From Thermodesulfobacteriota bacterium (GTDB taxonomy: Bacteria; Desulfobacterota; WTBG01; JAGOGO01), in contig CP113000.1 of assembly GCA_026625185.1 (NCBI GenBank), positions 240,001 to 272,000 of the forward strand: a stretch of 32,000 bases of DNA, written 5' to 3'. The notes below the pieces were generated by a model. The model was not told the origin of the DNA. It did no database searches and saw only the letters and a list, made by a program, of their open reading frames with translations. Below are positions 5,336 to 32,000 of the stretch, piece after piece (within the stretch, counting starts at the first letter, position 1; each line of letters opens with the position of its first letter). The position numbers and the translations under genes are program-made.

Positions 5336-5369
5336 AAAAAGGCCGCTATCTTTCTTCAAGATAGCGGCC
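5336..5369 (-). terminator. Intrinsic terminator (minus strand)
   Basis: Perfect 10-bp stem: ggccgctatc (5341-5350) pairs with gatagcggcc (5360-5369). On the plus strand it is preceded by aaaaa, which is a T-run on the minus strand. Confidence 0.75.
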
Positions 5370-5494
5370 CGACCATCAATCAACCTCCAGAAATGATTAC
5401 CTTTTCTGGACCCTTAAAAATTATTTTTATACATTTTTAAATTTAATACTTTTTTATATATTTTCCCCATTCCCTTGTCAAGTATATATTAACT

Positions 5495-7014: not shown

Positions 7015-7120
7015 AACCCGACACTTAACCCTAAAATTTAAACCGTAATCCATAGAACTATCCGCAACCAGAAAACAAAAATGGATTAGTGAAAACCGCT
7101 AACCCATTGAAATTACAAGA

Positions 7121-7163
7121 GGCGGCACCCGGATTCGAACCGGGGTATAAAGGTTTTGCAGAA
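7121..7163 (-). repeat. tRNA-Cys(GCA) 3-prime fragment, att core copy 2 (junction of elements 1 and 2)
   Basis: Same 43 nt as 1098-1140 apart from one variable-loop base (7146). It has no 5-prime half and no terminator on its left flank. Confidence 0.75.
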
Positions 7164-7393
7164 GAAATTTTAGAAATAAAATTAAATAAATTCAATATGT
7201 TATCTTGCAAAGATTGTCAAAATTTTACCGCAAAAAGTAACCTATCCGACACCGATTTCCGCAATTTGCAAATGGAAGCAAAAATTGAGATAAAAAACAT
7301 CATATTGTGTAATTAGGGAGATATCTTCGACAAGACGGTTTTCCCCCAGATCGCTTTCCCCGGATTAATAACAGGAGTTCTACGGGAGGCCCC

Positions 7394-14134: not shown

Positions 14135-14241
14135 TTCTCTACCTCCTTTTAATAATTGTTGACAGCCAACAAGACCAAACTATTATATGGTCACATGTTA
14201 GAATTTTTTAGTTGGTTGCTATGAAGAGTGAAGCTTAAAAT

Positions 14242-14280
14242 AAAAAAAGCCTATCACCTTTTATCAGGCAATCCGGCCTT
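14242..14280 (-). terminator. Repeat-family terminator hairpin, copy A (downstream of mcrBC)
   Basis: The minus strand reads GGCC GG ATTGCC TGATAAAA GGTGAT A GGC TTTTTTT. It is homologous to the copies at 23486-23525 and 27448-27488. Confidence 0.75.
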
Positions 14281-14685
14281 CTCTAAACATATTAAAATTT
14301 GAACCCCATTTTCTTGCACCATCTTTTAACGATGCCTCTTTTTGGGTTTGTTATTTCTCCTTTTGATAATACTTTATTTGGAAAAAGTCAAACATTATTA
14401 ATAGATTGGGTTTTAAAATTAAGCAGGGGAAAAAAGGCATTACTTTCTTTCATTTCTCATGATTTTTCTCTGTTTTACCTGAAAAAAACTTAAATACACG
14501 TAAATTTTGATAGATATTTAATACCCAATACTTTAATAAGGCCCTTTCAAAACAGCAAAAGTTTTACTTTTAAACTGAAGAAAAGCCCCTTTTAAGGGTA
14601 GAAAAAAACAGAGGAGGAATATTGGAAGGCCTTAAAGGAGATTCGGTTTTATGTCGGGTTTAATCAAGTGGGGTTAATAGATAAT

Positions 14686-15756
14686 TTATGCAGTGCCTAC
14701 ATTTTGCATCCCTGTATTTAATATTTCCAGCATACTTTTGTGAATCTGCTGCCAGGGTTTATTTAAGTTAATAGTCCTTATCATTAACTTATGGCCGCTC
14801 ATCATGTAGTTAAGGTTAACTTCATTACTTACTGTTGGATAGAGTAATAGCCCGGTGCACTGCCCACTAATGTCATTTTTTGCCTCTATATTTTTCAGGT
14901 ATGCAAATATTTGATATAAATTTTGAGAATGAATTTTTTCCTGATCATAATACTCCGCAAGAGCTTCTTTATAATATTTTGCATCAATAATCATCTTAGT
15001 AGTGTTTGATTTAATGGAAATATCAGTTGTCATTTTGGGCAGGTACGAACCAGAAATTTCATCCAAGGCGGTTACATTCCAGCTAATATCCTCACGCCCC
15101 ACATGATAATAGGGTGCTTCTATGATGTAAAATTTTCGTATAAACTCCTCAAAAAGCCCCGCCATTTGTCGTTCATCGCGTAGAAAGTCGCGAAATTTAC
15201 TTTTGCCTGGTTCTTCAGAAACCAATAAGTTATCATAAACTAATTCACATATTTTCAGTAAAAAATCATAAAATGAGTTGTTTTGATGCAATTGCACACG
15301 GTTAAAAAGTACCCCTGTAAGTTTTATGCCATCAATTTCGTGGAGACGACGATAAAGACCAATGAGCTCATTCTTTAAAGTTTTATCTATAGCTTCAATA
15401 CATATCAATTCCCATATGGTTGATTTTATGATTCGATTATGGAGAATGTTGTGGCTGAGTTCATCATATTCACAATGAACTTGAGCCTTAATTAAAAGAT
15501 TACGTTTTATGGTATGATTAAAACTGAATTTTCCTTTTAATGCGCAGGTATCCTCAGAAAACAATAAATAACCTCTATCCAAGCCCCTTTTAAGTAAATG
15601 GTTCATACCTCCGAGTAATACCTTTGAAAAAAGATCAACAAGGTTTGTCGTATCTATTCCGCTAACATTTACCACATCACGCTCGTCGAGCTTATTCCAA
15701 GCATAACAAAGGAGGTAATAAATGTTTTGTATTGGAATCGTTGTGGCGATGTTCAT
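14686..15756 (-). CDS. mcrC: McrC-like subunit of a type IV (modification-dependent) restriction system (356 aa)
   Basis: The N-terminus IQNIYYLLCYAWNKL is typical of McrC. A C-terminal PD-(D/E)xK-type motif lies around MIIDAKYY. 4-nt overlap with mcrB. Confidence 0.85.
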   Translation of the reverse strand: MNIATTIPIQNIYYLLCYAWNKLDERDVVNVSGIDTTNLVDLFSKVLLGGMNHLLKRGLDRGYLLFSEDTCALKGKFSFNHTIKRNLLIKAQVHCEYDELSHNILHNRIIKSTIWELICIEAIDKTLKNELIGLYRRLHEIDGIKLTGVLFNRVQLHQNNSFYDFLLKICELVYDNLLVSEEPGKSKFRDFLRDERQMAGLFEEFIRKFYIIEAPYYHVGREDISWNVTALDEISGSYLPKMTTDISIKSNTTKMIIDAKYYKEALAEYYDQEKIHSQNLYQIFAYLKNIEAKNDISGQCTGLLLYPTVSNEVNLNYMMSGHKLMIRTINLNKPWQQIHKSMLEILNTGMQNVGTA

Positions 15757-18176
15757 TTTAGGAGAATACTTATTTCATTTTTTACTTTTTCTTGGTTATC
15801 AAACCAATACTCACAGAGCAGTGGTTCTATTTCAGAAACAATAATTTTCTTATACCAATTCTCATCATAAACCGTGCCTGTGTTCATTGGGCAAAAATAA
15901 CTATGACCAATTCTATAGCCGGGACCAAGATTTTTTGTGTCTTCACTTATTTTTTCATTCAACTGGCAAAGTCGTTGGATAATTTTATCTACAAGCTCTA
16001 CAGATACCCCCGAACTTCTTAAATACGTTTTAAATTTATCCCCTTCAAACATTGGTTCAAGGCCAATGAAACTAAATCGCCTTCTCAAAGCATAATCAAC
16101 CATCGCCAATGAGCGATCAGCTGTATTCATTGTTCCAATAATATGAATATTAGAAGGTATCCAAAACTGTTCATCAATTGTTTGTGAATATGTAAGTGGT
16201 AGAGCAAACTCTTTTCCCCTTTTATCGGCTTCAATTAAAAACATCAGCTCACCAAATATTTTACTGAGATTGCCACGGTTAATCTCATCAATAATAAAAA
16301 AATAGGAACTATTCTGGTCGGCCTGTGCAATTTTACAGAACTGGTAAAAAATACCATTCTTGAGCACAAATCCCCCACCATCTGAAGGACGGAAGCCCTG
16401 GATGAAATCCTCATAAGAATACGATTGATGAAACTGAATCATAGCGATTCGGGTTTCGTCTTTTACACCCAGCAAAGAATATGCTAAACGCTTTGCTAAG
16501 AAGGTCTTGCCTACACCTGGAGGGCCTTGAAGAATAATGTTTTTTTTATGCTGAAGTCGATCAAGGATATAGTTTAAGTAGATTTCATCTACAAACAAAT
16601 CTTTAAGAGCATCTGCTGTTGTATATTTAATAGTTGGCGGGTTAAGCGGTGGATTAAGTTCGTCAATAACAGATCGAATAATTTCATATTCAGATTCAGA
16701 AAGTTTGAACAGGCTTCCCTGATTGTTAACAATTGGTTCACATGATTTAAGCTCTTCAATGCCTTGCAACCTGCTTAATTCGACAGGTTGTCTGAATTGT
16801 TCAGTTTTTTCTAACTCAATTTCCTCTCCTCCATCAGATTCATGAAGGCCTTTAGTGATCTTGCACATGCCAACAATAGCTTTATCAGGGGAGGCAATAT
16901 ATCCCAAAACAACATCACCAGGTTTAACAACAGTAAAATGCTTATAAATTCGCCTTTTATTACCTTTTTCATTGTATGATGTATAAGTGATCCGGCCACC
17001 GATATTTAATTCATTAAAACTCCATATCTTGGGATTGGCATTCATCCACCAGTAATTAACCTCACCCGCATCAAACAAGGATTCTAGTGTCTCAAAATCA
17101 TTCTTTTCTAATTTAATAATGGTTCTGCCGAATTTTCCCTGCATATTTTCAGGAATTGGAACTCCTTCATGATTAACCTTGTAGTATTTAACTTTAACAG
17201 TGTGCCTATATTCATTACGATTGGGATTAAATATATATCCACTTAAAACTTCCCCAGCGGCCAAAAGATATTTTCTTCCCTTGTTGGTGATAAATTTATC
17301 ACCCGGTTTTATAGTTAAAAAATGCCAAAGCATTGCAACTGAAGCAGTTAATTCTCCGTCTGTATTATTTGGATAATATTTTTTTATTAAGGCTGTAAGC
17401 TCATCCTTTGATTTCCCAGCGAGGTCAGCGTTGATTTCATCCCAGCCAATCGCAGCAATAGAATTTGAATATAAGTCATCCCATAATCTTGCTTGCTCAC
17501 CTGGAGCAATTTGCCAGTAGCTAATCTGAGAAGGAGGTGGTGTTGGCTCTCCTTTTATTTTATTTACCATATCGATTCCTTCTTTTTCCGCACTGATGGT
17601 GTGTAAGAAAGCGTCAACATTATCCAATGTCATATTTAAATCGGGTCTTAACTGGGGAATTTTATTTAGCAGGGTCAAGACCTTTTCATATATAACACCT
17701 TTTGAATCACCTCTATCACCTGCTTTCCAACCAAGCACATCAAATCCCATTTCCGTTTTATGGTTCCATGCACAATACTTATCGGGATTAAAGTCACTAA
17801 GAAATGCAGTAAGAATACCTCTGCCAAACCCACTGATTTTATAACCACCATTTAATATTTCATTTATCCTTTCTTTAATGTCTATACTTTCATCTAACAA
17901 GTAATAAATTGTTTTTCTAAATTGATTTACATCTCTAATGATTCTATCTCTTTGTATTTTGTTAAGATTTTGTTTGTCGCCTACGTTACTATTAAAATAT
18001 TGCAAATAGCGTTCTTTTAATTCATCATCTTGCATTGCCTTTATCACATTAGGCTGAATCCATTTGTGATTTTCCTCAATTCCTTTTTTTCTTTTTTCTC
18101 CCCATGTCTTCAGCATATTCGATTCATTTATAAACCAGCCTAAAAGTTCCTTTATCTGTTCATCTGTTAACCCCAT
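15753..18176 (-). CDS. mcrB: McrB-like AAA+ GTPase with a long N-terminal extension containing PUA/EVE-like modules (807 aa)
   Basis: Walker A LQGPPGVGKTF, Walker B FFIIDEINRGNLSKIFGELMFLIE and the McrB signature MNTADRSLAMVDYALRRRF. The N-terminal ~500 aa includes YWWMNANPKIW...VKPGDVVLGYIASPDKAIVG (EVE-like) and YWQIAPGEQARLW...IKPGDKF. Confidence 0.9.
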   Translation of the reverse strand: MGLTDEQIKELLGWFINESNMLKTWGEKRKKGIEENHKWIQPNVIKAMQDDELKERYLQYFNSNVGDKQNLNKIQRDRIIRDVNQFRKTIYYLLDESIDIKERINEILNGGYKISGFGRGILTAFLSDFNPDKYCAWNHKTEMGFDVLGWKAGDRGDSKGVIYEKVLTLLNKIPQLRPDLNMTLDNVDAFLHTISAEKEGIDMVNKIKGEPTPPPSQISYWQIAPGEQARLWDDLYSNSIAAIGWDEINADLAGKSKDELTALIKKYYPNNTDGELTASVAMLWHFLTIKPGDKFITNKGRKYLLAAGEVLSGYIFNPNRNEYRHTVKVKYYKVNHEGVPIPENMQGKFGRTIIKLEKNDFETLESLFDAGEVNYWWMNANPKIWSFNELNIGGRITYTSYNEKGNKRRIYKHFTVVKPGDVVLGYIASPDKAIVGMCKITKGLHESDGGEEIELEKTEQFRQPVELSRLQGIEELKSCEPIVNNQGSLFKLSESEYEIIRSVIDELNPPLNPPTIKYTTADALKDLFVDEIYLNYILDRLQHKKNIILQGPPGVGKTFLAKRLAYSLLGVKDETRIAMIQFHQSYSYEDFIQGFRPSDGGGFVLKNGIFYQFCKIAQADQNSSYFFIIDEINRGNLSKIFGELMFLIEADKRGKEFALPLTYSQTIDEQFWIPSNIHIIGTMNTADRSLAMVDYALRRRFSFIGLEPMFEGDKFKTYLRSSGVSVELVDKIIQRLCQLNEKISEDTKNLGPGYRIGHSYFCPMNTGTVYDENWYKKIIVSEIEPLLCEYWFDNQEKVKNEISILLK

Positions 18177-18570: not shown

Positions 18571-21138
18571 TCAGTTCGTCGTTAATTGCTGGCCGAGGAC
18601 AATATCCAATTCTGATCTGAATCCTTTGGCCTCTCCAGCACGTAGTTTGATAAAAAACTTATTGAAGTCCTTCGGCGTTATAAAATTCATTTGATAGACT
18701 ATGTTGAGACCTTCTTCCACTAACCACTTATTGAGCTGATCGAAATGAGCATTGGCATATTCACATTTCTTTTGATTTTCCATCGACGGATCGGCAATTT
18801 CGTTGTCATCTTTTATTTCGATCACAAGAATTGTATTACCCTGCTTCATGAAAAAGTCGGGGCTAAATTCACCGCGTTTTGGATGTTCACCTTTCTTCCA
18901 CGCGTATTCTATTGAATAGAATCTCTGCGGTGCATTCTTCAGCCATCCATCAAGTATCGTTGAATTTTCGCGCTCGCAAAGTAAACGTATAAATTTCCGT
19001 TCCGGTGTGGCATCAGCTATCGCCATGTTACAGGGTGTCTTGAAATCATGGGTATTAGCAATCTTCTCACAACCTGAGCGGTAATCGCCATCCGGGTCAA
19101 TCACCGAATTAAAAAAGTCTTTCTGTTCATCGGGAATCGTCTTCCCGGAATTCTGTGTAAAGAAAACTGTTTTATCACCTCGCCGTAATTCTGCAGCACT
19201 GACACTGATAGCTTGCCGTGAGGATGTCTTCACTGGTTGGAGTCTATTCGGCGTGAGTCGGTAAACAACCCGTTTGGCTGATTTGCGCCTTAATGGCCCT
19301 AAGGCTTGGAGTATCTTCTGACGATTTTCTTCTGCAATTCGTCCGCTTTTTATGCCGGCTTTTTTTGCTGAAGACATCACGATTTCATGGCACCGTTCGA
19401 AGGAGAACTTCTTTGCATACTGTGTCTGGTCCTTTGGATCTTCGGCATCTTTGGACTCCTCATCAATAGACTGTAGTCGTCTGTACATCTGTTCAGCAAC
19501 TTCTACAAAAGAATAAGTCTTGTGTTCAATCTTGGTTTTAAACTTCGTATGTTCACCGCTGACCGCGTGTTCAAACTCAATCGCAACGTCCTCAATTTCC
19601 ACTTGAGAAGGCAGGTCAACAAATCCCTGTTCAAGTAGGCGATACTCACCCTTTTTTGTATAGTGGCGTGTGTCTGTCTCTCGGGTGTAATCCAGATTAT
19701 GCAAGTCGAAATGGTAAGATGAGTCCGCAATGACCGATGAAGAAAGTCGGTTCTCCATTTCCAGAATCTCGTCTACAAGATGGCGAATACGCCCTACCCA
19801 GGCATCATGATTAAACACAGTCACGACAGGGTCCGCACCCTGCCACCTATCAGGACGACGTAAGCCACGCCCGAGAACCTGGGCAATTAAGAGCTTACTA
19901 TTGAAAGCGCGCTCCTCATGCGGAACAATCTGAAAAACATTTTTAACGTCCCAGCCCTCATTGAGCATGGCAACTGATACAATCCACTCAACCTTACTCG
20001 CGGGTTGGTCAACTAACTTAAGCCTTACAATATTTGTCTGGTGTTCCGTTGCTGAACTGACCGCAAGGACCTTTCTTTCCGCGTCATCCGCTGATATTTC
20101 CTCCCACTCCTGCAAGAAAGCCTGCAATTCCTCGGCAACAAGTTTGCAGGTTTTGATATCCTTTGTAACGATTATAGTCAGCGGGCGAATGCCTTGTTTT
20201 TTGAGACGCTTCTTCCAATCTTGGTGTCGATTATAGATCAACTGCCATTTTTCATCCGGGTTATCAGTTTGCGGCATTTCTGCGACATACTCTACCATTT
20301 TGACAAACCGCTCTTCAATTGCCTGACGAAGTGAATATCGGCTGACTACATCCGCAAAATACTCATCCGCGACATAGCAAGTACCTGAAACACCTAACAC
20401 GAAGCGAAAACCGTATTCAGGATTAAGAAGGAACTCTTTCCATTTTTTAATATTTGCCCCAGACTCATTCACAATATGGTGGGCTTCGTCATTGAAAACA
20501 GCCACACGCATGCCCTGTCCGAGAAGACTGTCACGAATCGATGATTTCACATGCTGTAAAATCGCATGGTAATTCTCCACGCAGATTGATTCATTAATAA
20601 TGCTCTCTGAAGCGTTGATGATCTTTGGCGCACGCACTTTTGCATCCGTCGGCAAAAGATCACGCAAATCGGCGTTACTCGCTAAATCTTTAAATTTTGC
20701 CAGCAAACCAGCCTCGATTGTATTGGATGGACAGAGTACAAGGACACGGTCAACTAATCCTTCGGCAAGCATAATAGTGGCAAGTCCGTAAAGCACATAA
20801 CTTTTACCTGTTCCTGTTGCCAAATCTATTGAGCAAGCCAACTGATCTGGCAATTGCAAGTGACGGTCCATGCCCGCCCAGGAACCATATCGCCGCTGAA
20901 TCTCTGCATTTTCATTAAAGTTCTCCTTCGCAAGTTCACGCAAGTTCTTATACTGCGCTCCGGCAAACAAGCGCATAACTAATCGGATTGCATCCTTCTG
21001 GTATTCACGATTACCGCAGAGTTCGTCAATGAATGCTTCATATTTGGACTCATTCCAAACAATAGGGTCTATGTTATCCGAGACCTTCAAAACAAGATCT
21101 TCGTTCTTAAACGTCTGTCTATCTCCCCGCGTCGTCAT
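18571..21138 (-). CDS. res: Type III restriction enzyme Res subunit (SF2 helicase plus C-terminal PD-(D/E)xK nuclease), 855 aa
   Basis: Helicase motif [11 protein letters not shown] and motif II FNDEAHH. C-terminal nuclease-like motif SPDFF...VIEIKDD. ATGA overlap with mod. Confidence 0.8.
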
Positions 21139-23219
21139 TTTTTGCTCCTGCTTTTCTTTTTAGGCTTGATCTCGCCGAACTTCGCCGCGTCAATCAGTAC
21201 CCTCGCCTCGTTGCCGTAGATGTCGAGGAAAACCGCCATCATCTTCTTGCCAAGTTGATCGGTCTGAAAACGCACCTTCCAGCCCACCTTTTCCAATGCT
21301 TCGGCATAGTAGACGGCGTCAAGATCAAAAACCTTGCCTGCATCGTTATAGTCTAAATCGAGCATCACCATCGAAAGGGTTTCCAGGGTGCCTTTCTTTT
21401 TGAACGGCTCACGAACAGCAGCTTCGCTCTTGAAGGTTTCGATCTTGATGAACCCTACTTCAGAGAATTCGCCTTTCGCTTTCTCCGTGCCGGTTTTGTA
21501 TTTTAGTTCCGGTGTGCGGATGAAGTCGAAGCCGACTGCTTCCACGGTGTCATTGACGGCCATCTCGTCTGACGGTTGTTTCAGCGCCGTAAATGCTTGC
21601 CGGTGCAATTCATGAATCATCGAGTAGGGAATCCTAAGCGCATAGTAGCGCACCCTATCCAAGTCAATATAGTCCTGTTGAAAGTCAAAGGCCAGCGCTG
21701 GGGCAACAATGAAGACCTTACTTCCAACTCGAGATCCTGCGGCCTCGTGAATCTCCTCAATCGTTTCTTCGGAAATGCAAGCGCCTTTGTGTTTGGTTTC
21801 CATGTGATTAAAGACCAGGACACTTTGACCTTGTCTATAGCCATCGAATAGGATGCCGCCGATCTTGTGTGGTGCATCACGGCAGCCGAACAGTTGCAAG
21901 GCGAAGAATCGCCAATTTAACCAGGGAAGCTCCTTGAGCGTCGAAAAGTCATATAGCCCAGCGTTGTAAAGCGTGAATGGCTTGGCCTCCAGCTTCGCAC
22001 CCTTGTTGCCGATCTTTTCACGAAGATTGAGCATACGTTTTTGAATAGTGTAAATGGATAGTTTGCCGCAGTCGATGCCTATCCAACGTCGTCCGAGTTT
22101 TTCCGCGACGGCCAATGTTGTTCCTGCTCCTGCAAATGCATCAAGAACTAGGTCGCCGGGATCAGAGGAGGCCTTGATAACTCTTTCAAGCAGAGCTTCG
22201 GGTTTCTGAGTAGGATAGTTCGCATTTTCTGCCGATGCAAATTGCACGGGCGAAATATCACTCCAAATGCTCTGCAAGGGACGACCGTGCCTCTCGTCAA
22301 GATACTGCTTCAGGCGCGGCACTTTGCCGCTCGGGGGCCAGTAAATTTTTCCCTGTTTGTCGAGTTGGTCGAGAGTGCTAATTTTCACTTTCCAATGATT
22401 ACCAAGCCTTGCGGGGTCAACTCCGCGCCACGGTCTTCCCGATTCACCATTTCGCAACCCTCGCGCGGTCAAGTCACCAATGCTGAATACTCGACCATCA
22501 GGATCGTAGTAACGGTAGAACTTTTTGATGTACTCTCGCGAGTATTCGGAATACTGAACATTAAATCGAAGGTTCCCCGTTTTTGTGTAGAAGTAGACGA
22601 CATCATGAATGTGGTTATAGGTATGCGAATCGCTACGCGCCGAAAGCCTTTGCCAGATAATTTCGTTTTGAAAATTCGCCTCGCCGAGCACTTCATCCAA
22701 AATGGTTTTGATGTAGTGACACTTTCGCCAATCAAGATGAACGTAAAGCGCCCCGTTATCTGACAGGAGTTCTCGTATCAGAATCAATCGTTTGCGAAGA
22801 AATTCCAGAAATGATGCGCCTGCAATTTTGTCTTGGTAGGCTTTCTGATCTTCCGTGCCTCGGAAGTCCTGCTTTGTTGCAAAGGGAGGATCAATGTAGA
22901 CAAGCCGAACCCCATCAGAACCATCAGCATTGCGGAGTTGGCCATTGCGCTTCATCTCCAGAAGCGTCTTCATTGCCTGAAGATTGTCACCGAAAATAAG
23001 CATGTTGTGCCAATCAATGCCGTTCAGTCCGAAGGTGCGGCCGGGTTGAAGGGGTACGGCCAGCGTATCTGCAATGATATCTTCTTCGCGATCCTTTCCG
23101 TGGTAAACAAGCTCGTACTCCCGCTTCTCCGGCGGGAACAGAATTCGCGCCCATTCGGGCGAGATGCCTTCCCCTTTTTCGAGTAACCTCGCTAATTCTT
23201 TTCTTTGTTCCGGTGTCAT
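21135..23219 (-). CDS. mod: Type III-like Mod DNA methyltransferase (beta-class N6A/N4C), 694 aa
   Basis: [13 protein letters not shown], motif [12 protein letters not shown], then motif [25 protein letters not shown] in permuted beta order. A long C-terminal extension follows motif I. Confidence 0.8.
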
Positions 23220-23411: not shown

Positions 23412-23485
23412 CTATTAAGACTTTTGTTTTACCCTGTTAATTGGAATTAAAATTTCTATTTTTTTAATGAGAGGAATCTCAAAAC

Positions 23486-23525
23486 AAAAAAGGCCTATCG
23501 CCTTTATATCAGGCAAGGTGGCCTT
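23486..23525 (-). terminator. Repeat-family terminator hairpin, copy B (downstream of the OLD gene)
   Basis: The minus strand reads AGGCC ACC TTGCC TGATATAAA GGCGA TA GGCCT TTTTT. Confidence 0.75.
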
Positions 23526-23939
23526 GTTATATGATCGCAATTTATTAAATATTGATTCCTCGAATACATTTTTTAAACCTATACCCCCGTTTGGGTTTTT
23601 CCTTGATTTATTAAATAAATTTAGGGAAAAGTCAATAATAATGAAGCATTCTGGGAATAAAAAACACCACATTTCTGCGGGTTTTATATGGGGTTTTTTT
23701 TAGGCTTATTCTTTATTAGTTTTATTACATAAAAAGCTGAAAGGAGGGCACATAACATGGTTGAAAAATGGGCAGTAGTTTTTGGATACGACATTGACAA
23801 GGATGAGATTTAGTAAAAACCAAAAAAAGGATACGAGGCATGTAGAAAAAAAACCAAGGGGCAGGTCAGAAGTTGAGACGTAGAAAACACTGGAGCATTT
23901 TCCCGTCGATTCTCAAACGACTTGTTATGCTCAGTTCTT

Positions 23940-25871
23940 TTATGTCATTGTGACCTTTCGGGCATGATTAAGTATTCCCACGCACAATTTTTCCAACAAA
24001 CTTGATTTGATGCCCTCATTCCACATATTTTCCAACGTTGCCGAAATTACTAATGGATTCTTCCGACGAACGCCATCCGACAGGGAGTGCTCTTGCCTCG
24101 CTTTTAACTCAGCATTATCCCACTTCTCTTGGCCAATCTCGGCTACAATCTCATCTTGTATCCGAGTGCACCACATTACCAGTGACTCAGAAAAATAGGT
24201 TGAATCGGGTAAGGGATTAGTTTGAAGGTTACATAGATTCAAAATGCACTGATTATCAGTCTTGTGTCTAAATTTTTCCTCTCCAGTCGCTTTATCACAG
24301 TCACCATCAAAAATAACATATGCAGGAATTCCCAAACCTTTAGCAATGGCCAAAGGCCGACTAAGGTTAGTTTTCCCGCCGCATACAACAAAATGACACC
24401 CGCAGCGTCTAAATTCAGACCATTTACCGCTTAGATGTAAATGAGTTGTTATGAACGCTATATCCTCTGGTCCCTCCACTAATACTGGAATCTGTGAGAA
24501 AAAAAGTTCATTTTGGGAAGGCTGCATGATTTGTTCAACAGCCGCCATTATTGATGTTGGGGACGAAGGATCCCCTCCAAGTGCTTTTGAAAGACTTGAT
24601 GACAGCGTTTGGTAAGTTAGGTGGGTCACAATGGTTTTACCGTCTGGTCCGGCCGACCTTGTCATCCTAACGCCTTCAAATCCTTTTGCAGAGATAAAAT
24701 ATGGACTATGAGTTGTTACTATTATTTGAGCATCACCTTTGGAAAGTTCATCGAGCAATGAAGAGAGGTGGCGTGCTTGTGGAGGGTGCTGGTAAAGTTC
24801 AGGTTCTTCAAACCCAAGTATTAAAGTGGGTTGTTCGCCTTCGTGAGTCGACGATAAAACTTGCAATAGCGCCACAATGAATGATCTTTGCATGCCATGG
24901 CCGACTCTAACCATTTCACCAAGAAAAGCACCTTCTCCAATTTTGGCCCTTGCCATAGGATCCGCTACCGATACCGATTTTGAATCATCATAGTGCCAGA
25001 GTAGTTCGACACGAGCTCCTGGGTGCGACCATGCACGCAGTCTCTCTTGGATGGTCTTCCCGATATCTAGCAATATATCTTGTTGGTCCTTTAATAGTTC
25101 TTGGTATTTCTGCCCCATTTCACGTCGCAGTTCTTCTAAAGGGTCTTTGAAATCAATCTGTGATCTGATAGTCCTTTGTAATAACGTTCCGAGAGCAGTA
25201 TTTTTCCCCTCTTGTTGCTCTTCTGTTGGATCTTTCACTGCTGGAATATAGACCCATTGACAATGCTGCTCAAGTAGATTAGCACCTTTGCTCCAACCAT
25301 AAAACTGATCATTACTCTCAACTGGCTCACAAAGTTTAGGGTGTTCTTCCTCATATTTTCTCAAAGCTTGTTGCATGGCATCTTTTGTTGTAGCCGCATC
25401 GATATCTGAGTATTTTTCACGGATTTCTTGAAAAATGTTCTTTAGATCACTAACTTTCGTACCTTCTTTTTCAGCTCTGAAATATTTTGCGAAGTCTTTT
25501 ATTATCTCTCGTGATCCAAATTGTTGGACTTCGGCTGTTTGCGTTTCTTTGTTCCATTCAGCCCTAGCAGATAAAATGAGTTTGTTTTGCCTAACATAGG
25601 CCTTTAAATCTTCTTTCGCTTTTTCTGAAAGATCAGTAAAAGTCGCTGTAATGGTAATTGGCTGCTCAACCTTTTTTAGATGGAAATCCTCTTCGACCAG
25701 AGTGACAACGTTTGATGCAGCTTGAGTGTTTCTAAAAAGAATATTCAAGGCATTTAGTACGGTTGATTTACCAGAGCCATTTGGTCCCACGAAGCAAGAG
25801 TAATCACCAAAATCTATCGTTTCGTCTTCGAATGAACGGAAATTTTGAATGCGAAGTTGGGAAAGCTTCAT
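23940..25871 (-). CDS. OLD-family ATP-dependent nuclease (ABC-type ATPase plus C-terminal Toprim), 643 aa
   Basis: GGAGG RBS before ATG 25871; the track ORF starts 27 codons upstream. MKLSQLRIQNFRSF, Walker A FVGPNGSGKST, Walker B-like LILGFEEPELYQHP, and Toprim motifs VLVEGPEDIAF and YVIFDGDCD. Confidence 0.85.
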   Translation of the reverse strand: MKLSQLRIQNFRSFEDETIDFGDYSCFVGPNGSGKSTVLNALNILFRNTQAASNVVTLVEEDFHLKKVEQPITITATFTDLSEKAKEDLKAYVRQNKLILSARAEWNKETQTAEVQQFGSREIIKDFAKYFRAEKEGTKVSDLKNIFQEIREKYSDIDAATTKDAMQQALRKYEEEHPKLCEPVESNDQFYGWSKGANLLEQHCQWVYIPAVKDPTEEQQEGKNTALGTLLQRTIRSQIDFKDPLEELRREMGQKYQELLKDQQDILLDIGKTIQERLRAWSHPGARVELLWHYDDSKSVSVADPMARAKIGEGAFLGEMVRVGHGMQRSFIVALLQVLSSTHEGEQPTLILGFEEPELYQHPPQARHLSSLLDELSKGDAQIIVTTHSPYFISAKGFEGVRMTRSAGPDGKTIVTHLTYQTLSSSLSKALGGDPSSPTSIMAAVEQIMQPSQNELFFSQIPVLVEGPEDIAFITTHLHLSGKWSEFRRCGCHFVVCGGKTNLSRPLAIAKGLGIPAYVIFDGDCDKATGEEKFRHKTDNQCILNLCNLQTNPLPDSTYFSESLVMWCTRIQDEIVAEIGQEKWDNAELKARQEHSLSDGVRRKNPLVISATLENMWNEGIKSSLLEKLCVGILNHARKVTMT

Positions 25872-26067
25872 TTCAGAACCTCCGAATCTCAATCGTAATA
25901 AAAAAGAATAACCTTGCGTTTCGATGGTTGTATGCCAAGAGCAACTTTCCAATTACGCAATTTTTGACTAAGATTTCAAAATCAAAAAATTGTGCGCATT
26001 AACAATCGACCGCAAACGGTTTGTTATTTGTTCTTAACATTCTTGCATAAAAGTAGTAGCTGCTTAA

Positions 26068-27303
26068 TTATTCTTCTATTGTTTTATCAGGTAATTGCAG
26101 TAAATCCGTTTGGAGTGATTTACCAGCTATTCCCTTAATTGACCCGAATAGAGCTGAAATATTTTCTTGAACCACCCAGATTTGTTTCTCTCTTTCAGCC
26201 CAAATTTTGTGCATTGATTTTTTCTCTGAATTTAGCTGGTTAATCATGCCTTCATAGTTTTCTACAATTCTTTTTATGTTTTGCACAAATTCATTGCTGG
26301 TAAGGTAGTTGTAAAGTAATTCCATCTTGTCACCTTTGTTTTCTTGCGACAGTTTTACAGAATTGATTTTTATTAACATTTCTCGAAGAACAAAAGATAG
26401 ACTCTTAACTTCGTAAAAACTACAAATCCATACACCGTTTTTTTCTCCGAATCTATCCATATCCACAGGGTAAGTTTCAGTAACAATTACAGCAAGATCA
26501 GCCTTGCAAATAATCTGGTCTTGCTTTAATTTGTCTATCCAATCATTCGCAAAATTTTTAGTACGCTTGCTTTCATAAACTATCAAGCCACATTTATGCT
26601 GATTTGAATTAATAACAATTTGTATTGCATCTGCACCACGGACCCCTTTTGGCACTTCTTCAATTGTGTCAAATGGATAAGTTCGAGATAAAAGATCTTC
26701 AAGCGCCAATTCTTGAACTTCACCCTGAAGTTGCATAGAACCCTGCTCTGCTTTCCGTTTCATCTCTTCAGCTAGTTTCTTGTTGTCTTCAATTTGTTTG
26801 AGGAGTTTTACTTTTTCAAGTTCAAAACTTTCTCTTTCCTTTGCTCGGGCTTTATCTTCAATTTCCTTCTGTCTTTCAAGAAGTTGCTTTTCCATTTGCA
26901 AATTCAGGTCTTCTTGCTTTTCTTTTAACTCTGCTTCTTGTTTTAGAAAGGCAACTTCTTTTTCCTTAAGAGACTTATTTTCAGCTTTTCTTTTTTCATT
27001 CTCTTCTTGAAGAGCTTTTATTTTTTCTTCCACTGATTCAAGCACATTTTTTTCAATCTTCGATTTTTCTTGTTCAAGTTTTTTGGCTAGTTCAGTTTGA
27101 AAAAGTTCACCTTCCTTTTCTCGCTGTTGTTCAAATAACCGTTTTTCTTCTTCAAGCTTTCGTTTTTCCTGATTGAATTTTTCGGCTTGTTCAGCCACCT
27201 TCTTTTCATATTCAGTTTTAAAATGAGCTTCTAGTTTTCCCGAAAGCGCTTCTTCAACATTAAAGCTGTGTCCACAGTTAGGGCATTTGATTTCATTGTT
27301 CAT
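26068..27303 (-). CDS. DUF2130-like protein: N-terminal zinc ribbon, long coiled coil, C-terminal PD-(D/E)xK-like domain (411 aa)
   Basis: MNNEIKCPNCGHSF, then about 180 aa of E/K-rich heptad-like sequence, then GADAIQIV...GLIVYESKRTKNF (a D...ExK pattern). Confidence 0.7.
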   Translation of the reverse strand: MNNEIKCPNCGHSFNVEEALSGKLEAHFKTEYEKKVAEQAEKFNQEKRKLEEEKRLFEQQREKEGELFQTELAKKLEQEKSKIEKNVLESVEEKIKALQEENEKRKAENKSLKEKEVAFLKQEAELKEKQEDLNLQMEKQLLERQKEIEDKARAKERESFELEKVKLLKQIEDNKKLAEEMKRKAEQGSMQLQGEVQELALEDLLSRTYPFDTIEEVPKGVRGADAIQIVINSNQHKCGLIVYESKRTKNFANDWIDKLKQDQIICKADLAVIVTETYPVDMDRFGEKNGVWICSFYEVKSLSFVLREMLIKINSVKLSQENKGDKMELLYNYLTSNEFVQNIKRIVENYEGMINQLNSEKKSMHKIWAEREKQIWVVQENISALFGSIKGIAGKSLQTDLLQLPDKTIEE

Positions 27304-27447
27304 ATTTGATGACCTTTATAAAATGGATATTAACTATTTTGTTTTTTTACACAAAACAATGCTTATATGGTTTCTATATGACACGCTTGACCCTTTACAA
27401 CGCATCGACCGGACTCCGCACTCCTTTACCTTCTTCGCAAAAAAAAT

Positions 27448-27488
27448 AAAAAAAGGCCCATCACCTTTGTATCTGGCAATCCGACCTT
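27448..27488 (-). terminator. Repeat-family terminator hairpin, copy C (downstream of the 650-aa gene)
   Basis: The minus strand reads GGTC GG ATTGCC AGATACAAA GGTGAT G GGCC TTTTTTT. Confidence 0.75.
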
Positions 27489-27750
27489 CTTTGTTCTCTC
27501 AAAATAATAAACCCGCTCTCCTCCGATTATATCATTGAGTTTCCGTTTTTTTTATTCAAAGATGAATTTTCTCATTGAAAACATTAAATCTTAACCTGAT
27601 AAAAATCAACTAAAATTTAGCTCCAGATGTCATTTAAGCAAGCCAAAAATATCTCTTGATTTCCTAAGAGAATAATTATAAAAAGCTTCATTACGACTAA
27701 CCATAGGGAGTAGGGATAATTATGGTGAGCAATCAATTTAAATTTCAATA

Positions 27751-27886: not shown

Positions 27887-29839
27887 TCATTGGTTGTCGG
27901 AATTGATGCGTTTGTAGACCTCTTCGTTGTTCAAGCCAAGAGCTTTTTGAAGTTTTTTAAGCAAATACGCTTCTAGCAACGAAGACAAGCGATTCACGGG
28001 GTCAATGATTCTGAAGCCGGAAATATGGTGCGCGATGTTAAGTGCAATTAGCAATAATCCGAGAATGCCGGACAGGACGCGCCAGAAAATGCTGGCTGTA
28101 GGCGGTTCGAAGAAAGGGCGATACGAATAGACAAGAAAAAAGATCGCGATTATAATTAATGCTGCACGCACTACAGCGGGCACCAGATGTGCAAGACGCC
28201 GAATGTTGTGTTCTACATTCGAAACCTTACTTTCGCTGACAGTTAGTCTCTGGAGGGCTTTTTGGTGATCGGTACCAACTTGATTGAGTTGGTCCATCAA
28301 GGGGCGTGTAATTTCTTGCTCATGCTGGGCAAGGATTTGCAGTACAATTTGTTCGCTGACTTCTTCTTCGTCCCCCAGGGTCAGGTTCATAAGTTCATCA
28401 CGTACTCGGAGCTCATATCTGAGATATTGATGTTGCTCCGGCGTGATTGTTTTGTCGTTGCGGAGTTTGTCCAACTCGGCCAAGAACTTGTTCCATAGTT
28501 GCTCGGAAGGTTTCAGTATGCTGTAGCAGTGAGCGAGAAGGAGGTGCATGGGGACATTAGGGTTTTTCAAAGGGGACTTGACCCAAACAATATTGGTGAG
28601 ACTGAAGTCAGTTATGACCGGAGAAACATTTTTGAATTCGTGGTACCCACGCCCGTAAGCATACGCAGCCCGGGCAAGAGCTGCGTTATTAGTTAGAACT
28701 AGTGCACGAGATTCCTCAACCCGCTCTGGCGAACTACCTGCTCTCAAAACATACGCACTACGAACAGAGTTGACATCTGCCTTTTTTGCTATTTCGCTGC
28801 GATATTGGAGGCCAACAGCCTCCATTTCTTTCTCCAAGGCGACTTCATCGATCTGATATTTCTCGACGTAACTGGGGGTTTTCTTGATTTGGATCCCTTC
28901 GTCATCCAGGAGATTCTTAATTCGTGCACGGATGAGCGCCACATCGCTTGGCGACATTCCAGCGTCCCGGAGCGCTACTATTACATTGCCGTGCCCTCCG
29001 CTCGGCATTTCGAGATAACGCTCTGCATTCCTGAGGACATGATCAGTTTCTTCCAATGTATGAGAAAATATTTTAAGCTGGGCACCAGCATCCTTGAATA
29101 GATGCAAGATTTCTCGTGTGTATGCCTTGATTTCCTTTCCAACTACCCCGAGTGTTTGCAGGATGAGGGGTGTATCAATATAGATTGCTGTATCTCGGAA
29201 CTTGGCTCCCAGACCAGACAGGTCGGAAGCGAGCAGAGCATTAACAAGCATTCTGCCAGTGAGCACTGTCACGAAATACCGGAAAAGATCCGGTTTTTTT
29301 GACGATATGTGGTTCGCAAATCTGGAAACGATGAACCTCCAGTGCAGTGGCTGACTCCCGCGAATCGGAACCGTAGTGCCTGAAGTGAATGATGCAACAC
29401 ACTCAATGGAGTATTCATCAATGTAATTCAGGAGCCCTGACTCACAATCAGCCTCCGTGAGGTCTTGTCCAAGTTCGTCGCGTGTATAATCCTTAAGATT
29501 GAGGACAACTGCGCGGTAATGAGCCTCCAATTCGGCCTGATTTTTTTTAAACTCTTGTGGTTGGCACTTGATCTTGACGACGAGATACAACTTGTTGTCC
29601 CGCTTGACGATTCTACGTTTGCACATACGCGACAGGAAAAGCTTTACGGTGGGTAAAGGAAGATCGAGGCCAAAATCATTTATGAGCCAATCTTTGAGTT
29701 CCTCTGGTGAAAAACGGTTTGGTGAGTGGTTGAATAGGCACACCTCTGCAAAACAGATGAAGGCGTCAACGATATCACGCTTCTCGAGGTCGAATCTCGC
29801 CTTGAGAAGTGCCAAGCTTGTTAGCGTAACTGAAAGCAT
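27887..29839 (-). CDS. Orphan 650-aa protein: wHTH-like N-terminus, PIN-like central region, coiled coil, two C-terminal TM helices
   Basis: GGAG RBS. KLFLSRMCKRRIVKRDNKLYLV (wHTH-like). AIYIDTPLILQTLG, FSHTLEETDHVL and ALVLTNNAALARAA give a tentative PIN-like acidic pattern. Hydrophobic helices VVRAALIIIAIFFLVYSY and VLSGILGLLLIALNIA. Confidence 0.8.
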   Translation of the reverse strand: MLSVTLTSLALLKARFDLEKRDIVDAFICFAEVCLFNHSPNRFSPEELKDWLINDFGLDLPLPTVKLFLSRMCKRRIVKRDNKLYLVVKIKCQPQEFKKNQAELEAHYRAVVLNLKDYTRDELGQDLTEADCESGLLNYIDEYSIECVASFTSGTTVPIRGSQPLHWRFIVSRFANHISSKKPDLFRYFVTVLTGRMLVNALLASDLSGLGAKFRDTAIYIDTPLILQTLGVVGKEIKAYTREILHLFKDAGAQLKIFSHTLEETDHVLRNAERYLEMPSGGHGNVIVALRDAGMSPSDVALIRARIKNLLDDEGIQIKKTPSYVEKYQIDEVALEKEMEAVGLQYRSEIAKKADVNSVRSAYVLRAGSSPERVEESRALVLTNNAALARAAYAYGRGYHEFKNVSPVITDFSLTNIVWVKSPLKNPNVPMHLLLAHCYSILKPSEQLWNKFLAELDKLRNDKTITPEQHQYLRYELRVRDELMNLTLGDEEEVSEQIVLQILAQHEQEITRPLMDQLNQVGTDHQKALQRLTVSESKVSNVEHNIRRLAHLVPAVVRAALIIIAIFFLVYSYRPFFEPPTASIFWRVLSGILGLLLIALNIAHHISGFRIIDPVNRLSSLLEAYLLKKLQKALGLNNEEVYKRINSDNQ

Positions 29840-30232: not shown

Positions 30233-30862
30233 ATGACAATAGAACCCAAAAAAGAAGAACCTAAAAGAGGCAACATAAACCATCCCCCAAAAGGTTCCAT
30301 AATCAGGGTTGATCCCATTCGGGAAGAAAAAGACATCAAGGCGATAAGAAAACTTCTTGCCGACAATCCCCGGAACCACCTACTTTTTGTAATGGGGATT
30401 AATAATGGTCTGAGGGTGGGGGATTTATTAAAGCTTAAGGTCGGAGATTTACGGGGAATGAAACCCGGAGACTCTATCACTATCAAGGAGGGAAAGACTG
30501 GAAAGCAGAATATCCTGGTCATCAACAAGACCGTTCATAAAGTCCTTAGTGAATTCTTATCAAGTGCCAAAGTTGAAGATGATGACTACTTATTTAAAAG
30601 CAAAAAAGGCAACCGTGCTTTAACCATCCCAGCAGTCAATGCTCATATAAAGAAGTGGACATCAGTCATTAATCTTAAAGGCAAATTTGGTGCGCATTCC
30701 TTAAGGAAGACTTGGGGCTTTATCCAGAGAACTCATTATGGTGTTGGTTTTGAGCTTATCTGTAAGCGGTTCAACCATCAAAGTCCCGCAGTTACTATGC
30801 GCTACCTTGGGATTACTGATAAAGAGGTGCAGAATATTTTGACCAATAATGAGATTGGTTAA
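30233..30862 (+). CDS. Small (209 aa) tyrosine recombinase, catalytic domain only, FimB/FimE-sized
   Basis: Catalytic contexts NGLRVGDLLKLK (R), KEGKTGK (K), GAHSLRKTW (HxxR), NHQSPAVTMRYLG (H...Y). There is no SAM-like core-binding domain. Confidence 0.8.
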   Translation: MTIEPKKEEPKRGNINHPPKGSIIRVDPIREEKDIKAIRKLLADNPRNHLLFVMGINNGLRVGDLLKLKVGDLRGMKPGDSITIKEGKTGKQNILVINKTVHKVLSEFLSSAKVEDDDYLFKSKKGNRALTIPAVNAHIKKWTSVINLKGKFGAHSLRKTWGFIQRTHYGVGFELICKRFNHQSPAVTMRYLGITDKEVQNILTNNEIG

Positions 30863-30880
30863 ACAAGGAGGTGAAAAAGA

Positions 30881-32000
30881 ATGGGCGTAAAAGTTAGGGA
30901 AATGAAAAAAGGTGAGTGGTGGATTTTTATTTACCATCACGGAAAACATAAAGCCAAAAAGATAGGTAGGGATAAGAGGGTAGCATTAGAGGTGGCTAAG
31001 AAAATTGAGGCTAAGCTTGCTTTGGGGGAAATGGATTTAGAAAAAATGAAAAAACGTGTTCCGACCTTTAAGCAATTTGTTTATGGTTGGGAAGACCATG
31101 AAGGCATGCATCCGGGCTGGTTACATTCCTTGGCAGAGTTATCATTCAAAAATTCAACGCGGACAGGTTATAAGAATATTTTAAGCCGTCATCTTATTCC
31201 TACCTTTGGAAATAACCCCCTTAATGAGATAAATTCGCGCCTGGTTAGCGATTTTACTTATAGGCTTTTCAATGCGAAGTTAAGAAGCGGATCGGTAAAA
31301 AATATTAAGAACTGTCTCAGTTCTATTTTAAGAAAGGGCACCCAGGACGGCTATCTTGAATCAAATCCAGCGCGAGGTGTAAGTGTGCCAAGACCTGAAG
31401 GTGAGCGTTCATTTAGAGAGCCTTGTCCCTTTACCTGGGAAGAACGAGATCATTTTGAATCTACTTTTAAAGAAAAGTTTCCAAGATATTATCCCCTTGT
31501 TGTTTGTGGGTTTAGAACTGGGCTAAGAATCGGTGAGCTTTTAGGGTTACAATGGGGTGACATTGATTTTTTTAATAAGATTATTCTGGTTCAGAGAAAT
31601 ATTACCTTGGGAAAGATCACAACCCCTAAGACCTTATCCAGTAAAAGGATGGTAAGAATGACAACTAACCTGGTTGAGATTTTGGAAAAGCACCGCCAAA
31701 GGATTATCGAGGAAAAGTTAAGAAAAGGCTGGAAGGAAATGCCGGAGTGGGTTTTTGTCAACCAGATAGGTTCGTTTGTTAATTATGGCAGATTCGTGAA
31801 TCACTACTGGCACCGTATAATAACGCTTTCAGGTTTGAGCCGAAGAACACCGCACGACATGAGACATACTTATGCTACCTTACGATTGAGCAAAGGGGAT
31901 TCACTGGCAGAGGTTAGTAAAGAAATGGGACACGGAAACACGGATTTGACGTATAAAACTTATTATAAATGGTTGCCAAAAGAAAGCAGAACGAACATCG
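30881..32000 (+). CDS. int: Phage-type tyrosine integrase with an arm-binding-type N-terminus; partial, runs off the right edge
   Basis: Absent from the ORF track because it is open at the edge. AAGGAGGTG RBS, then ATG 30881. My translation gives MGVKVREMKKGEWWIFIYHHGKHKAKKIG... then RTGLRIGELLGLQWGDID, TPHDMRHTYATL and GHGNTDLTYKTYY. Confidence 0.85.
   Translation, partial: MGVKVREMKKGEWWIFIYHHGKHKAKKIGRDKRVALEVAKKIEAKLALGEMDLEKMKKRVPTFKQFVYGWEDHEGMHPGWLHSLAELSFKNSTRTGYKNILSRHLIPTFGNNPLNEINSRLVSDFTYRLFNAKLRSGSVKNIKNCLSSILRKGTQDGYLESNPARGVSVPRPEGERSFREPCPFTWEERDHFESTFKEKFPRYYPLVVCGFRTGLRIGELLGLQWGDIDFFNKIILVQRNITLGKITTPKTLSSKRMVRMTTNLVEILEKHRQRIIEEKLRKGWKEMPEWVFVNQIGSFVNYGRFVNHYWHRIITLSGLSRRTPHDMRHTYATLRLSKGDSLAEVSKEMGHGNTDLTYKTYYKWLPKESRTNI

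Follow-up and report, generated by a model that had tools for sequence, protein, structure and literature searches.

Nucleases of the OLD family are classed by their gene neighbours. In Gabija (class 2) the OLD protein stands beside a UvrD-like helicase, in retrons (class 3) it accompanies a reverse transcriptase (RT), and in PARIS (class 4) it is split into AriA and AriB; the class 1 enzymes, which are 'alone', are the least understood. They are described in reviews as isolated single genes (PMC10568477), and single-gene activity is reported for the OLDs of P2, Thermus scotoductus and Vibrio cholerae (PMC12392090, PMC10568477). Reviews also explicitly raise the question of whether class 1 OLDs associate with other proteins. 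Here we analyse a 32,000-nt stretch of the genome of a Thermodesulfobacteriota bacterium (contig CP113000.1, positions 240,001 to 272,000; hereafter the window), in which an OLD gene directly follows a gene for a DUF2130 protein. DUF2130 is listed as a family of unknown function within the PD-(D/E)XK superfamily (PMC3424549). A first reading of the letters alone (the sequence-only reading) had taken the two genes for a possible two-gene system unlike Gabija, PARIS or retron-OLD. Our results support that proposal in part: the pairing recurs in tight operons elsewhere, but it does not look like a fixed module in this window, where two autonomous nuclease cassettes lie head-to-tail in an integrase-associated island together with type III restriction-modification (R-M) and McrBC genes.

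Results

Both genes are intact and, as had been read, co-oriented on the minus strand, with DUF2130 upstream and OLD directly adjacent to it. The downstream gene had been taken for a full OLD nuclease with an ABC ATPase and a Toprim domain, and this is confirmed by matches to AAA_15 (E 3e-52, residues 1-393) and to the OLD-like TOPRIM family PF20469 (E 5e-12, residues 457-524), as well as by invariant motifs. The ATPase motifs (Walker A GPNGSGKS, EEPELYQH and THSPYF) do not vary among 30 relatives and the Toprim motifs read VEGPED and DGDCD; K35, E355/E356, H388, E466, D470, D522 and D524 are invariant in the same set. The protein has the ABC-type ATPase with Walker A, Walker B and H-loop, and the C-terminal Toprim with acidic metal ligands, by which the family is defined, and the gene encodes an intact class-1-type enzyme with ATPase and Toprim nuclease in one polypeptide. 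Because its ATG at 25871 is preceded by a GGAGG ribosome-binding site (RBS), and because a public protein from a Thermodesulfobacteriota metagenome-assembled genome (P0121) is 100% identical to it over 643 aa, the gap between the two genes is indeed the 196 bp first noted.

How does this enzyme compare with the OLDs of described systems? Its best PADLOC models are Old (E 2.8e-53) and AriA (E 7e-54, residues 1-393, that is the ATPase half only); GajA models give much lower scores than either. The ATPase half thus resembles AriA of PARIS, but ATPase and Toprim are fused in one 643-aa open reading frame (ORF) and there is no separate AriB. With Gabija the locus shares an OLD-family ATPase-Toprim protein and a second, co-oriented DNA enzyme beside it; no UvrD-like helicase stands next to this OLD, however, whose neighbours are DUF2130 and type III Mod, and the second enzyme is a putative nuclease located upstream, whereas that of Gabija is a helicase located downstream. 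Retron OLDs have the same domain architecture, and the relative with 80% identity to the window OLD lies just after a pair formed by STM3845 and an RT; in contrast, no window ORF carries an RVT domain, and an Rfam scan of the window finds only nhaA-I and no retron non-coding RNA. The claim that none of the known OLD partners adjoins this gene (UvrD helicase, RT, non-coding RNA or split AriA/AriB) therefore stands. Since it fails the Gabija, retron-OLD and PARIS contexts, the enzyme files as class 1 by default, with the caveat that its clade, unlike class 1 as described, has recurrent neighbours (KTSC, DUF2130 and a Metallophos/SMC-like pair). In favour of class 1 are the match to the Old model, the closest solved relative, which is the class 1 Thermus scotoductus OLD (6p74, E 1e-21, matching residues 321-537), the lack of helicase, RT or split partner, and the solitary occurrence of its closest relatives in differing defence islands. 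It departs from class 1 in its length (643 aa compared with a range of 500-600 aa; PMC12392090) and in directly following a DUF2130 nuclease in a defence island.

The upstream protein matches the DUF2130 family PF09903 with E 2.9e-63 (214 bits, cut-off 26.7), residues 163-396 covering model positions 4-251 of 255. A CPxCG zinc ribbon, about 180 aa of coiled coil and a D...ESK restriction-endonuclease-like C-terminus had been read from its letters. As to the ribbon, C7-P8-x-C10-G11 at the N-terminus is invariant, but only two cysteines are conserved, too few to demonstrate a zinc ribbon with four ligands; zinc could be bound at an intermolecular site. As to the coiled coil, in an AlphaFold2 model built from a diverse alignment (mean pLDDT 79), residues 16-208 form one long predicted helix with a break near 149-158. 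This model replaced an earlier one from a shallow alignment, in which the nuclease domain had a pLDDT below 50. Residues 213-321 are predicted as a compact alpha/beta domain (strands 213-216, 226-231, 237-246 and 270-275; nuclease domain pLDDT 82-92). D225 and E244-S245-K246 do not vary in 49 homologues, the most distant of which are about 32% identical, and together with the core they correspond to the PD-(D/E)XK signature, D...(D/E)xK on an alpha-beta-beta-beta-alpha-beta core. Foldseek searches of the PDB with the model returned mainly PD-(D/E)XK domains from proteins of defence or repair (SPARDA DREN, DdmD, Bax1, MspJI and PaqCI; best E 1.8e-3), with TM scores of 0.16-0.2 because only about 105-137 residues align. 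The residues of the proposed C-terminus are thus firmly conserved, and its assignment to a PD-(D/E)XK-type nuclease fold is moderately supported. Searched against PDB sequences, the DUF2130 profile matched nothing beyond coiled-coil noise, and PADLOC v2 has no real model for the protein, its only matches there being to LmuB, through the coiled coil, and marginally to PDC-M10B. The family is large, with about 8000 matches returned per search.

RmuC and SbcCD/Rad50-Mre11 likewise combine a nuclease head with a long coiled coil, and the two-cysteine CxxC motif of DUF2130 is reminiscent of the Rad50 zinc hook. DUF2130 has no ATPase head, and neither its PDB-sequence search nor its Foldseek search gave a sequence or structure match to them. 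An SbcCD-like pair, Metallophos plus SMC-like, is in turn an alternative neighbour of the window OLD clade.

The pairing of the two families was also sought elsewhere. Among 80 metagenome loci whose OLD is 43-67% identical to that of the window (the OLD-centred sample), six have a true DUF2130 as direct neighbour, a frequency exceeded only by that of KTSC. As a rough estimate, finding six DUF2130 genes in some 300 flanking ORFs greatly exceeds chance expectation if a genome of about 3000 genes holds at most one. In all, about 17 DUF2130-OLD pairs were collected in both gene orders, twelve of them with gaps of 13 bp or less. The window pair is not coupled in this way: 196 bp lie between its genes, while the gaps of the tight pairs (L124, L139, L179, L184, L193, L198, L200, L215-L221) measure 1-13 bp. 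Operons of the Planctomycetota type place OLD 3-12 bp after DUF2130, some with KTSC and some without it. Planctomycetota-type loci (L124, L139, L179/L180) have the order DUF2130, OLD, KTSC with gaps of 6-12 bp, and one Planctomycetota relative has no OLD. At L184 a P2-Old-like OLD begins 3 bp after DUF2130, and at L198 the order is HsdM-HsdS-OLD-like-DUF2130 with a gap of 5 bp. In a prophage-borne lineage OLD comes first and is separated from DUF2130 by 2 bp in six of the seven members with at least 77% identity and upstream DNA present. On an Aliarcobacter plasmid DUF2130 lies 1 bp upstream of a bona fide Gabija, GajA (E 2e-190) followed by GajB (E 3e-270). A scan of viral contigs with the window-type DUF2130 profile found two loci; a scan with the Planctomycetota-type protein gave no matches.

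Twice the pairing has been kept through replacement of the OLD, the DUF2130 proteins being 61-67% identical and their partner OLDs 25-28%. In a neighbour-joining tree, DUF2130-linked OLDs fall at no fewer than five separate places, and in the window's own OLD clade three of nine members have DUF2130, in three different arrangements. Across pairs, the identities of DUF2130 and OLD correlate weakly (Spearman 0.38, p 0.06), which is consistent with partner shuffling and not with co-inheritance. In one further locus (L083 567-2501) the DUF2130-adjacent OLD is split into two ORFs of 331 and 203 aa, where a frameshift, a pseudogene or an assembly error is possible.

Two other neighbours of the OLD clade were observed. 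The commonest is a KTSC gene (PF13619, about 71 aa) directly after OLD, often overlapping its stop codon, in 13 of the 80 OLD-centred loci and in further loci (L096, L099, L104, L105, L108, L109, L111, L116, L118, L124, L125, L139, L161, L179/L180 and L194); no KTSC-OLD link turned up in the literature. A KTSC-like small gene 3' of OLD was sought in the window as a third partner and none was found. The other neighbour, a Metallophos nuclease with an SMC-like AAA_27 ATPase of about 1165 aa (SbcCD/YhaON-like), follows OLD in about seven loci, including the closest relative (L164 3437-8205, the 87% relative; L088, L093, L103, L114, L115, L133 and L140).

Conserved adjacency, for which the sequence-only reading had proposed a survey of homologues, is absent among the close relatives of both genes. 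None of the five contexts of OLD relatives with 63-87% identity has DUF2130: their neighbours are the Metallophos and SMC-like pair (87%), STM3845 plus RT (80%), type I R-M plus McrBC (78%), phage-like genes (69%) and a NERD protein (63%). The 80% relative (L168 2973-6959) stands 173 bp after its STM3845 (RcaT-like) and RVT_1 pair, a retron-like unit, and could be a case of island co-residence or a class-3-like arrangement. Conversely, none of about 10 contexts of DUF2130 relatives with 70-91% identity has OLD, the gene being solitary among metabolic genes. In a DUF2130-centred sample of 80 genome loci with 10-kb flanks, tblastn found OLD in none (0/80) and the family hidden Markov model gave one weak match 3.1 kb away; the commonest neighbours were housekeeping genes. 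The window DUF2130 clade (sampled as P0001-P0120; L001-L004, L081, L171-L178) is 75-93% identical across Bacteroidota, Omnitrophota, Desulfobacterota, Gammaproteobacteria, KSB1 and WOR-3.

The limits of DNA similarity lie close to each ORF. To the 87% OLD relative they run from about 30 nt before the ATG to about 55 nt past the stop, and to the 84-91% DUF2130 relatives from about 45 nt before the ATG to the stop, so that DUF2130 and OLD are two separate cassettes, joined relatively recently. The leader of DUF2130 moves together with the gene among unrelated genomes and is probably its own promoter/RBS region; this suggests recent horizontal spread of the clade as a lone single-gene cassette with a leader of about 45 nt. 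The 3' tail of the window OLD is homologous in L164 up to the start of the Metallophos gene. From these boundaries and contexts, the pairing in this window would be recent and facultative. A dedicated insulated module, as first proposed, is thus not supported here: the nearest relatives of each gene are without the partner, the cassettes are separate, the gap is 196 bp and DUF2130 is not OLD-specific.

Could the two genes nevertheless be transcribed together? On the minus strand the order is ORF650, terminator C, DUF2130, spacer, OLD, 411 bp, terminator B, Mod, Res, McrB-like, McrC and terminator A. The terminators are copies of a 48-nt repeat, present three times within 13 kb with 60-77% identity to the reference copy, and all three fold as a hairpin followed by a U-run on the minus (coding) strand. 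Copies B and C do flank the pair, but to call the bracketing precise, as had been done, is too strong, since 140 bp separate C from DUF2130 and 411 bp separate OLD from B (the extent of 23486-25525 previously given for the region of copy B was a typing slip; the copy occupies 23481-23528). An intrinsic terminator was sought in the spacer (25872-26067) and none was found, nor does the spacer fold significantly (z = -0.88), which makes read-through from DUF2130 into OLD plausible, and the genes are probably at least partly co-transcribed. OLD may have its own start signals as well. A consensus scan of the spacer gave no convincing sigma-70-type promoter, but such a scan is uninformative for the host phylum, and only the last ~30 nt, the RBS region, are common to OLD relatives. 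The same bracketing encloses type III R-M and McrBC, which are independent systems sharing one bracket; it therefore indicates at most transcriptional insulation and is weak evidence for functional unity.

Each repeat copy lies about 400 bp 3' of the preceding stop codon, and the intervening sequences are dissimilar among the three. Integron-like attC sites or cassette boundaries were considered for these repeats and rejected, as they are simple two-tier hairpins with U-runs at operon ends on the coding strand, have no attC-type core motif and enclose a 9-kb block with two unrelated systems. An 85-aa ORF (23415-23672) overlaps terminator B, has no family match and is probably spurious.

Table 1. 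Coordinates of the features described (positions within the window)
Feature	Position	Strand	Remarks
DUF2130 gene	26068-27303	minus	411 aa; PF09903 match
OLD-family nuclease gene	23940-25871	minus	643 aa; ABC ATPase and Toprim
DUF2130-OLD spacer	25872-26067	minus	196 bp; no intrinsic terminator, no significant fold
DUF2130 leader, ~45 nt	27304-27348	minus	shared with L081 (91% protein identity) and L171 (84%)
OLD 3' tail, ~55 nt	23885-23939	minus	kept in the 87% and 80% relatives; homology stops there
Repeat-terminator copy A	14236-14283	minus	3' of McrC; closes the Mod-Res-McrB-McrC block; -19.9 kcal/mol, z = -3.8
Repeat-terminator copy B	23481-23528	minus	411 bp past the OLD stop; -18.4 kcal/mol, z = -3.6
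Repeat-terminator copy C	27444-27491	minus	3' of ORF650, 140 bp ahead of the DUF2130 start; -15.2 kcal/mol
Type III R-M Mod	21135-23219	minus	
Type III R-M Res	18571-21138	minus	
McrB-like EVE/AAA_5	15753-18176	minus	
McrC	14686-15756	minus	
ORF650	27887-29839	minus	650 aa; between integrases and DUF2130; upstream of terminator C
Two tyrosine recombinase (phage integrase family) genes	30233-32000	plus	mark one island end
DDE transposase gene	5508-6677		
nhaA-I RNA (RF03057)	5359-5413	minus	Rfam 44.9 bits, above gathering score; near DDE transposase

DUF2130 was also found beside other defence genes. In more distant members of the prophage-type lineage it follows type III Res, type I HsdR or a SMODS/AGS-C (CBASS-like) cyclase by 13-15 bp, and on two plasmids it sits immediately before type I R-M. 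Plasmid copies are found near Ppl/TrlF, ahead of a pair of gamma-glutamylcyclotransferase and RT-like genes, and in AbiE, SIR2, Fic and NB-ARC neighbourhoods. On this evidence DUF2130 resembles an accessory added to defence operons in general, while most genomes carry it as a lone gene with metabolic neighbours; its varied neighbours point to a promiscuous defence-locus nuclease on mobile elements that is a solitary chromosomal gene elsewhere. The loci with R-M, cyclase or RT-like genes nearby are L225, L229, L235, L199, L203 and L207, on viral contigs and plasmids.

The surroundings of the pair are those of a mobile element. Further left in the window are genes for a DUF3854 protein, an HTH protein and the DDE transposase, and the GC content varies from 34 to 49% across the island. 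The gene content, the integrases, a pair of 77-nt repeats and this range of GC define the setting as a mosaic integrative defence island. The 77-nt direct repeats (1097-1173 and 7120-7196) are 88% identical and hold a tRNA 3'-end fragment, CCCCGGTTCGAATCCGGGTGCCGCCT (minus strand); ARAGORN found no complete tRNA at the island ends, only these 3'-end fragments inside the repeats. They resemble the att-type ends of integrative elements in tandem, and the second may delimit a defence island of about 25 kb ending at the integrases. ORF650 was considered as a partner and rejected, having no homologue near any sampled OLD or DUF2130 locus and no Pfam or PADLOC match.

Discussion

What is new here is the recurrent pairing of DUF2130 with OLD; class 1 OLD and DUF2130 as a PD-(D/E)XK family were already known, and our literature search retrieved no paper linking DUF2130, COG4487 or PF09903 to OLD or to defence. 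From gene neighbourhoods we infer that DUF2130 is a promiscuous nuclease, not a dedicated OLD subunit, which stands repeatedly in tight operons by ATP-dependent DNA-targeting defence enzymes. Besides Gabija, R-M of types I and III and a CBASS-like cyclase, its partners would comprise class 1 OLDs from two or more widely divergent clades; cooperation with OLD is plausible and would be optional. For the pair in the window, we favour a class-1-type OLD able to act alone, accompanied by DUF2130 as an optional accessory nuclease, both probably co-transcribed in one terminator-delimited unit; taken as a whole, we consider this reading evenly poised between right and wrong. The OLD would then be an ATP-controlled nickase/exonuclease acting on invading or replicating DNA, as the OLDs of P2, Thermus scotoductus and Vibrio cholerae, and would be sufficient alone. 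DUF2130 would dimerise through its coiled coil and CxxC tip and could optionally add a second DNA cleavage or end-processing activity, which would finish off, or block the repair of, DNA nicked or cut by the neighbouring enzyme. We suggest such a processing role because the partners are nearly all DNA-targeting enzymes.

Several observations weigh against this accessory role. The nuclease fold of DUF2130 has been assigned from motifs and from weak Foldseek scores, none at E ≤ 0.001. The OLD-centred loci were chosen by similarity to this OLD and many are short contigs, so that the frequencies are rough. The gap of 196 bp, the difference in GC (34% versus about 41%) and the lack of the pair in close relatives would fit no functional link at all, and if DUF2130 is merely a common island resident, part of its association with OLD could be co-residence. 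In the opposite direction, the recurrence of tight operons and the exchange of partners could reflect a dependence that is stronger in some lineages, to the point of being obligate.

How far could these objections be carried? At one extreme, the two genes would be unrelated units of one gene each, brought side by side by chance in a mosaic defence island, with DUF2130 as either a housekeeping DNA-repair/recombination nuclease or an independent defence gene. The solitary DUF2130 genes of the window clade among metabolic genes in many phyla, the 0/80 DUF2130 loci with an OLD, the mosaic GC and gene content of the island, the bracketing that lumps R-M with McrBC in the same way and the very varied plasmid neighbours all speak for such co-residence. 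Yet adjacency in 6 of 80 loci and some 17 pairs, with gaps of 2-13 bp in both orders, is improbable by chance, two lineages have retained OLD-type partners through swaps, and DUF2130 accompanies three of nine members of the window OLD clade in three arrangements; we regard pure co-residence as unlikely. At the other extreme, neither gene would protect alone and the two would form an obligate system and a new OLD context class, for example with OLD as ATP-driven sensor/nickase and DUF2130 as double-strand effector. The shared strand and order, the terminators around the pair and not between the genes, the tight operons in several lineages with pairing retained through OLD swaps and the absence of all known OLD partners would suit this idea. 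It is disfavoured by the nearest relatives of both genes, which lack the partner, by cassette limits right at each ORF, by the gap of 196 bp compared with 1-13 bp in tight operons, by the 74 of 80 members of the OLD clade without DUF2130 and by class 1 OLDs reported functional as single genes (PMC12392090), and obligate dependence here seems decidedly unlikely.

It may also be imagined that DUF2130 is a cellular DNA-end/recombination nuclease inhibited by phages, and that OLD monitors it and fires when it is blocked. The analogy comes from P2 Old, which kills recBC cells, responding to the loss of RecBCD, and from Gabija, which responds to RecBCD antagonists (PMC10568477, PMC12407980); the other recurrent neighbour of the OLD clade, Metallophos plus SMC-like ATPase, is a coiled-coil nuclease pair too. 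Such a guard function would leave the DUF2130 genes behind R-M genes or a CBASS-like cyclase unexplained, as well as the majority of OLDs of the clade, which have no DUF2130, and we think it highly improbable.

An optional DUF2130 accessory beside a self-sufficient OLD is thus the arrangement that we retain for this locus. A broader and more tentative proposal, which we hold to be rather doubtful, is that DUF2130 could be a widespread unrecognised accessory or effector nuclease module of prokaryotic immunity, fitted to ATP-dependent systems that target DNA (several clades of class 1 OLDs, Gabija, R-M of types I and III and CBASS-like cyclases), that DUF2130 plus OLD might make a fifth OLD context class and that the pair in the window might be a working example in which both genes are needed for full protection. 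The pairing in the window is loose, and the broader pattern of DUF2130 is the more valuable lead. Even if the two genes act independently, DUF2130 is still flagged as a likely defence-island nuclease. A recurrent neighbour that is also found before Gabija and behind R-M is a concrete candidate partner for class 1 OLDs, and its pairing with OLD provides a first functional handle on the large DUF2130 family.

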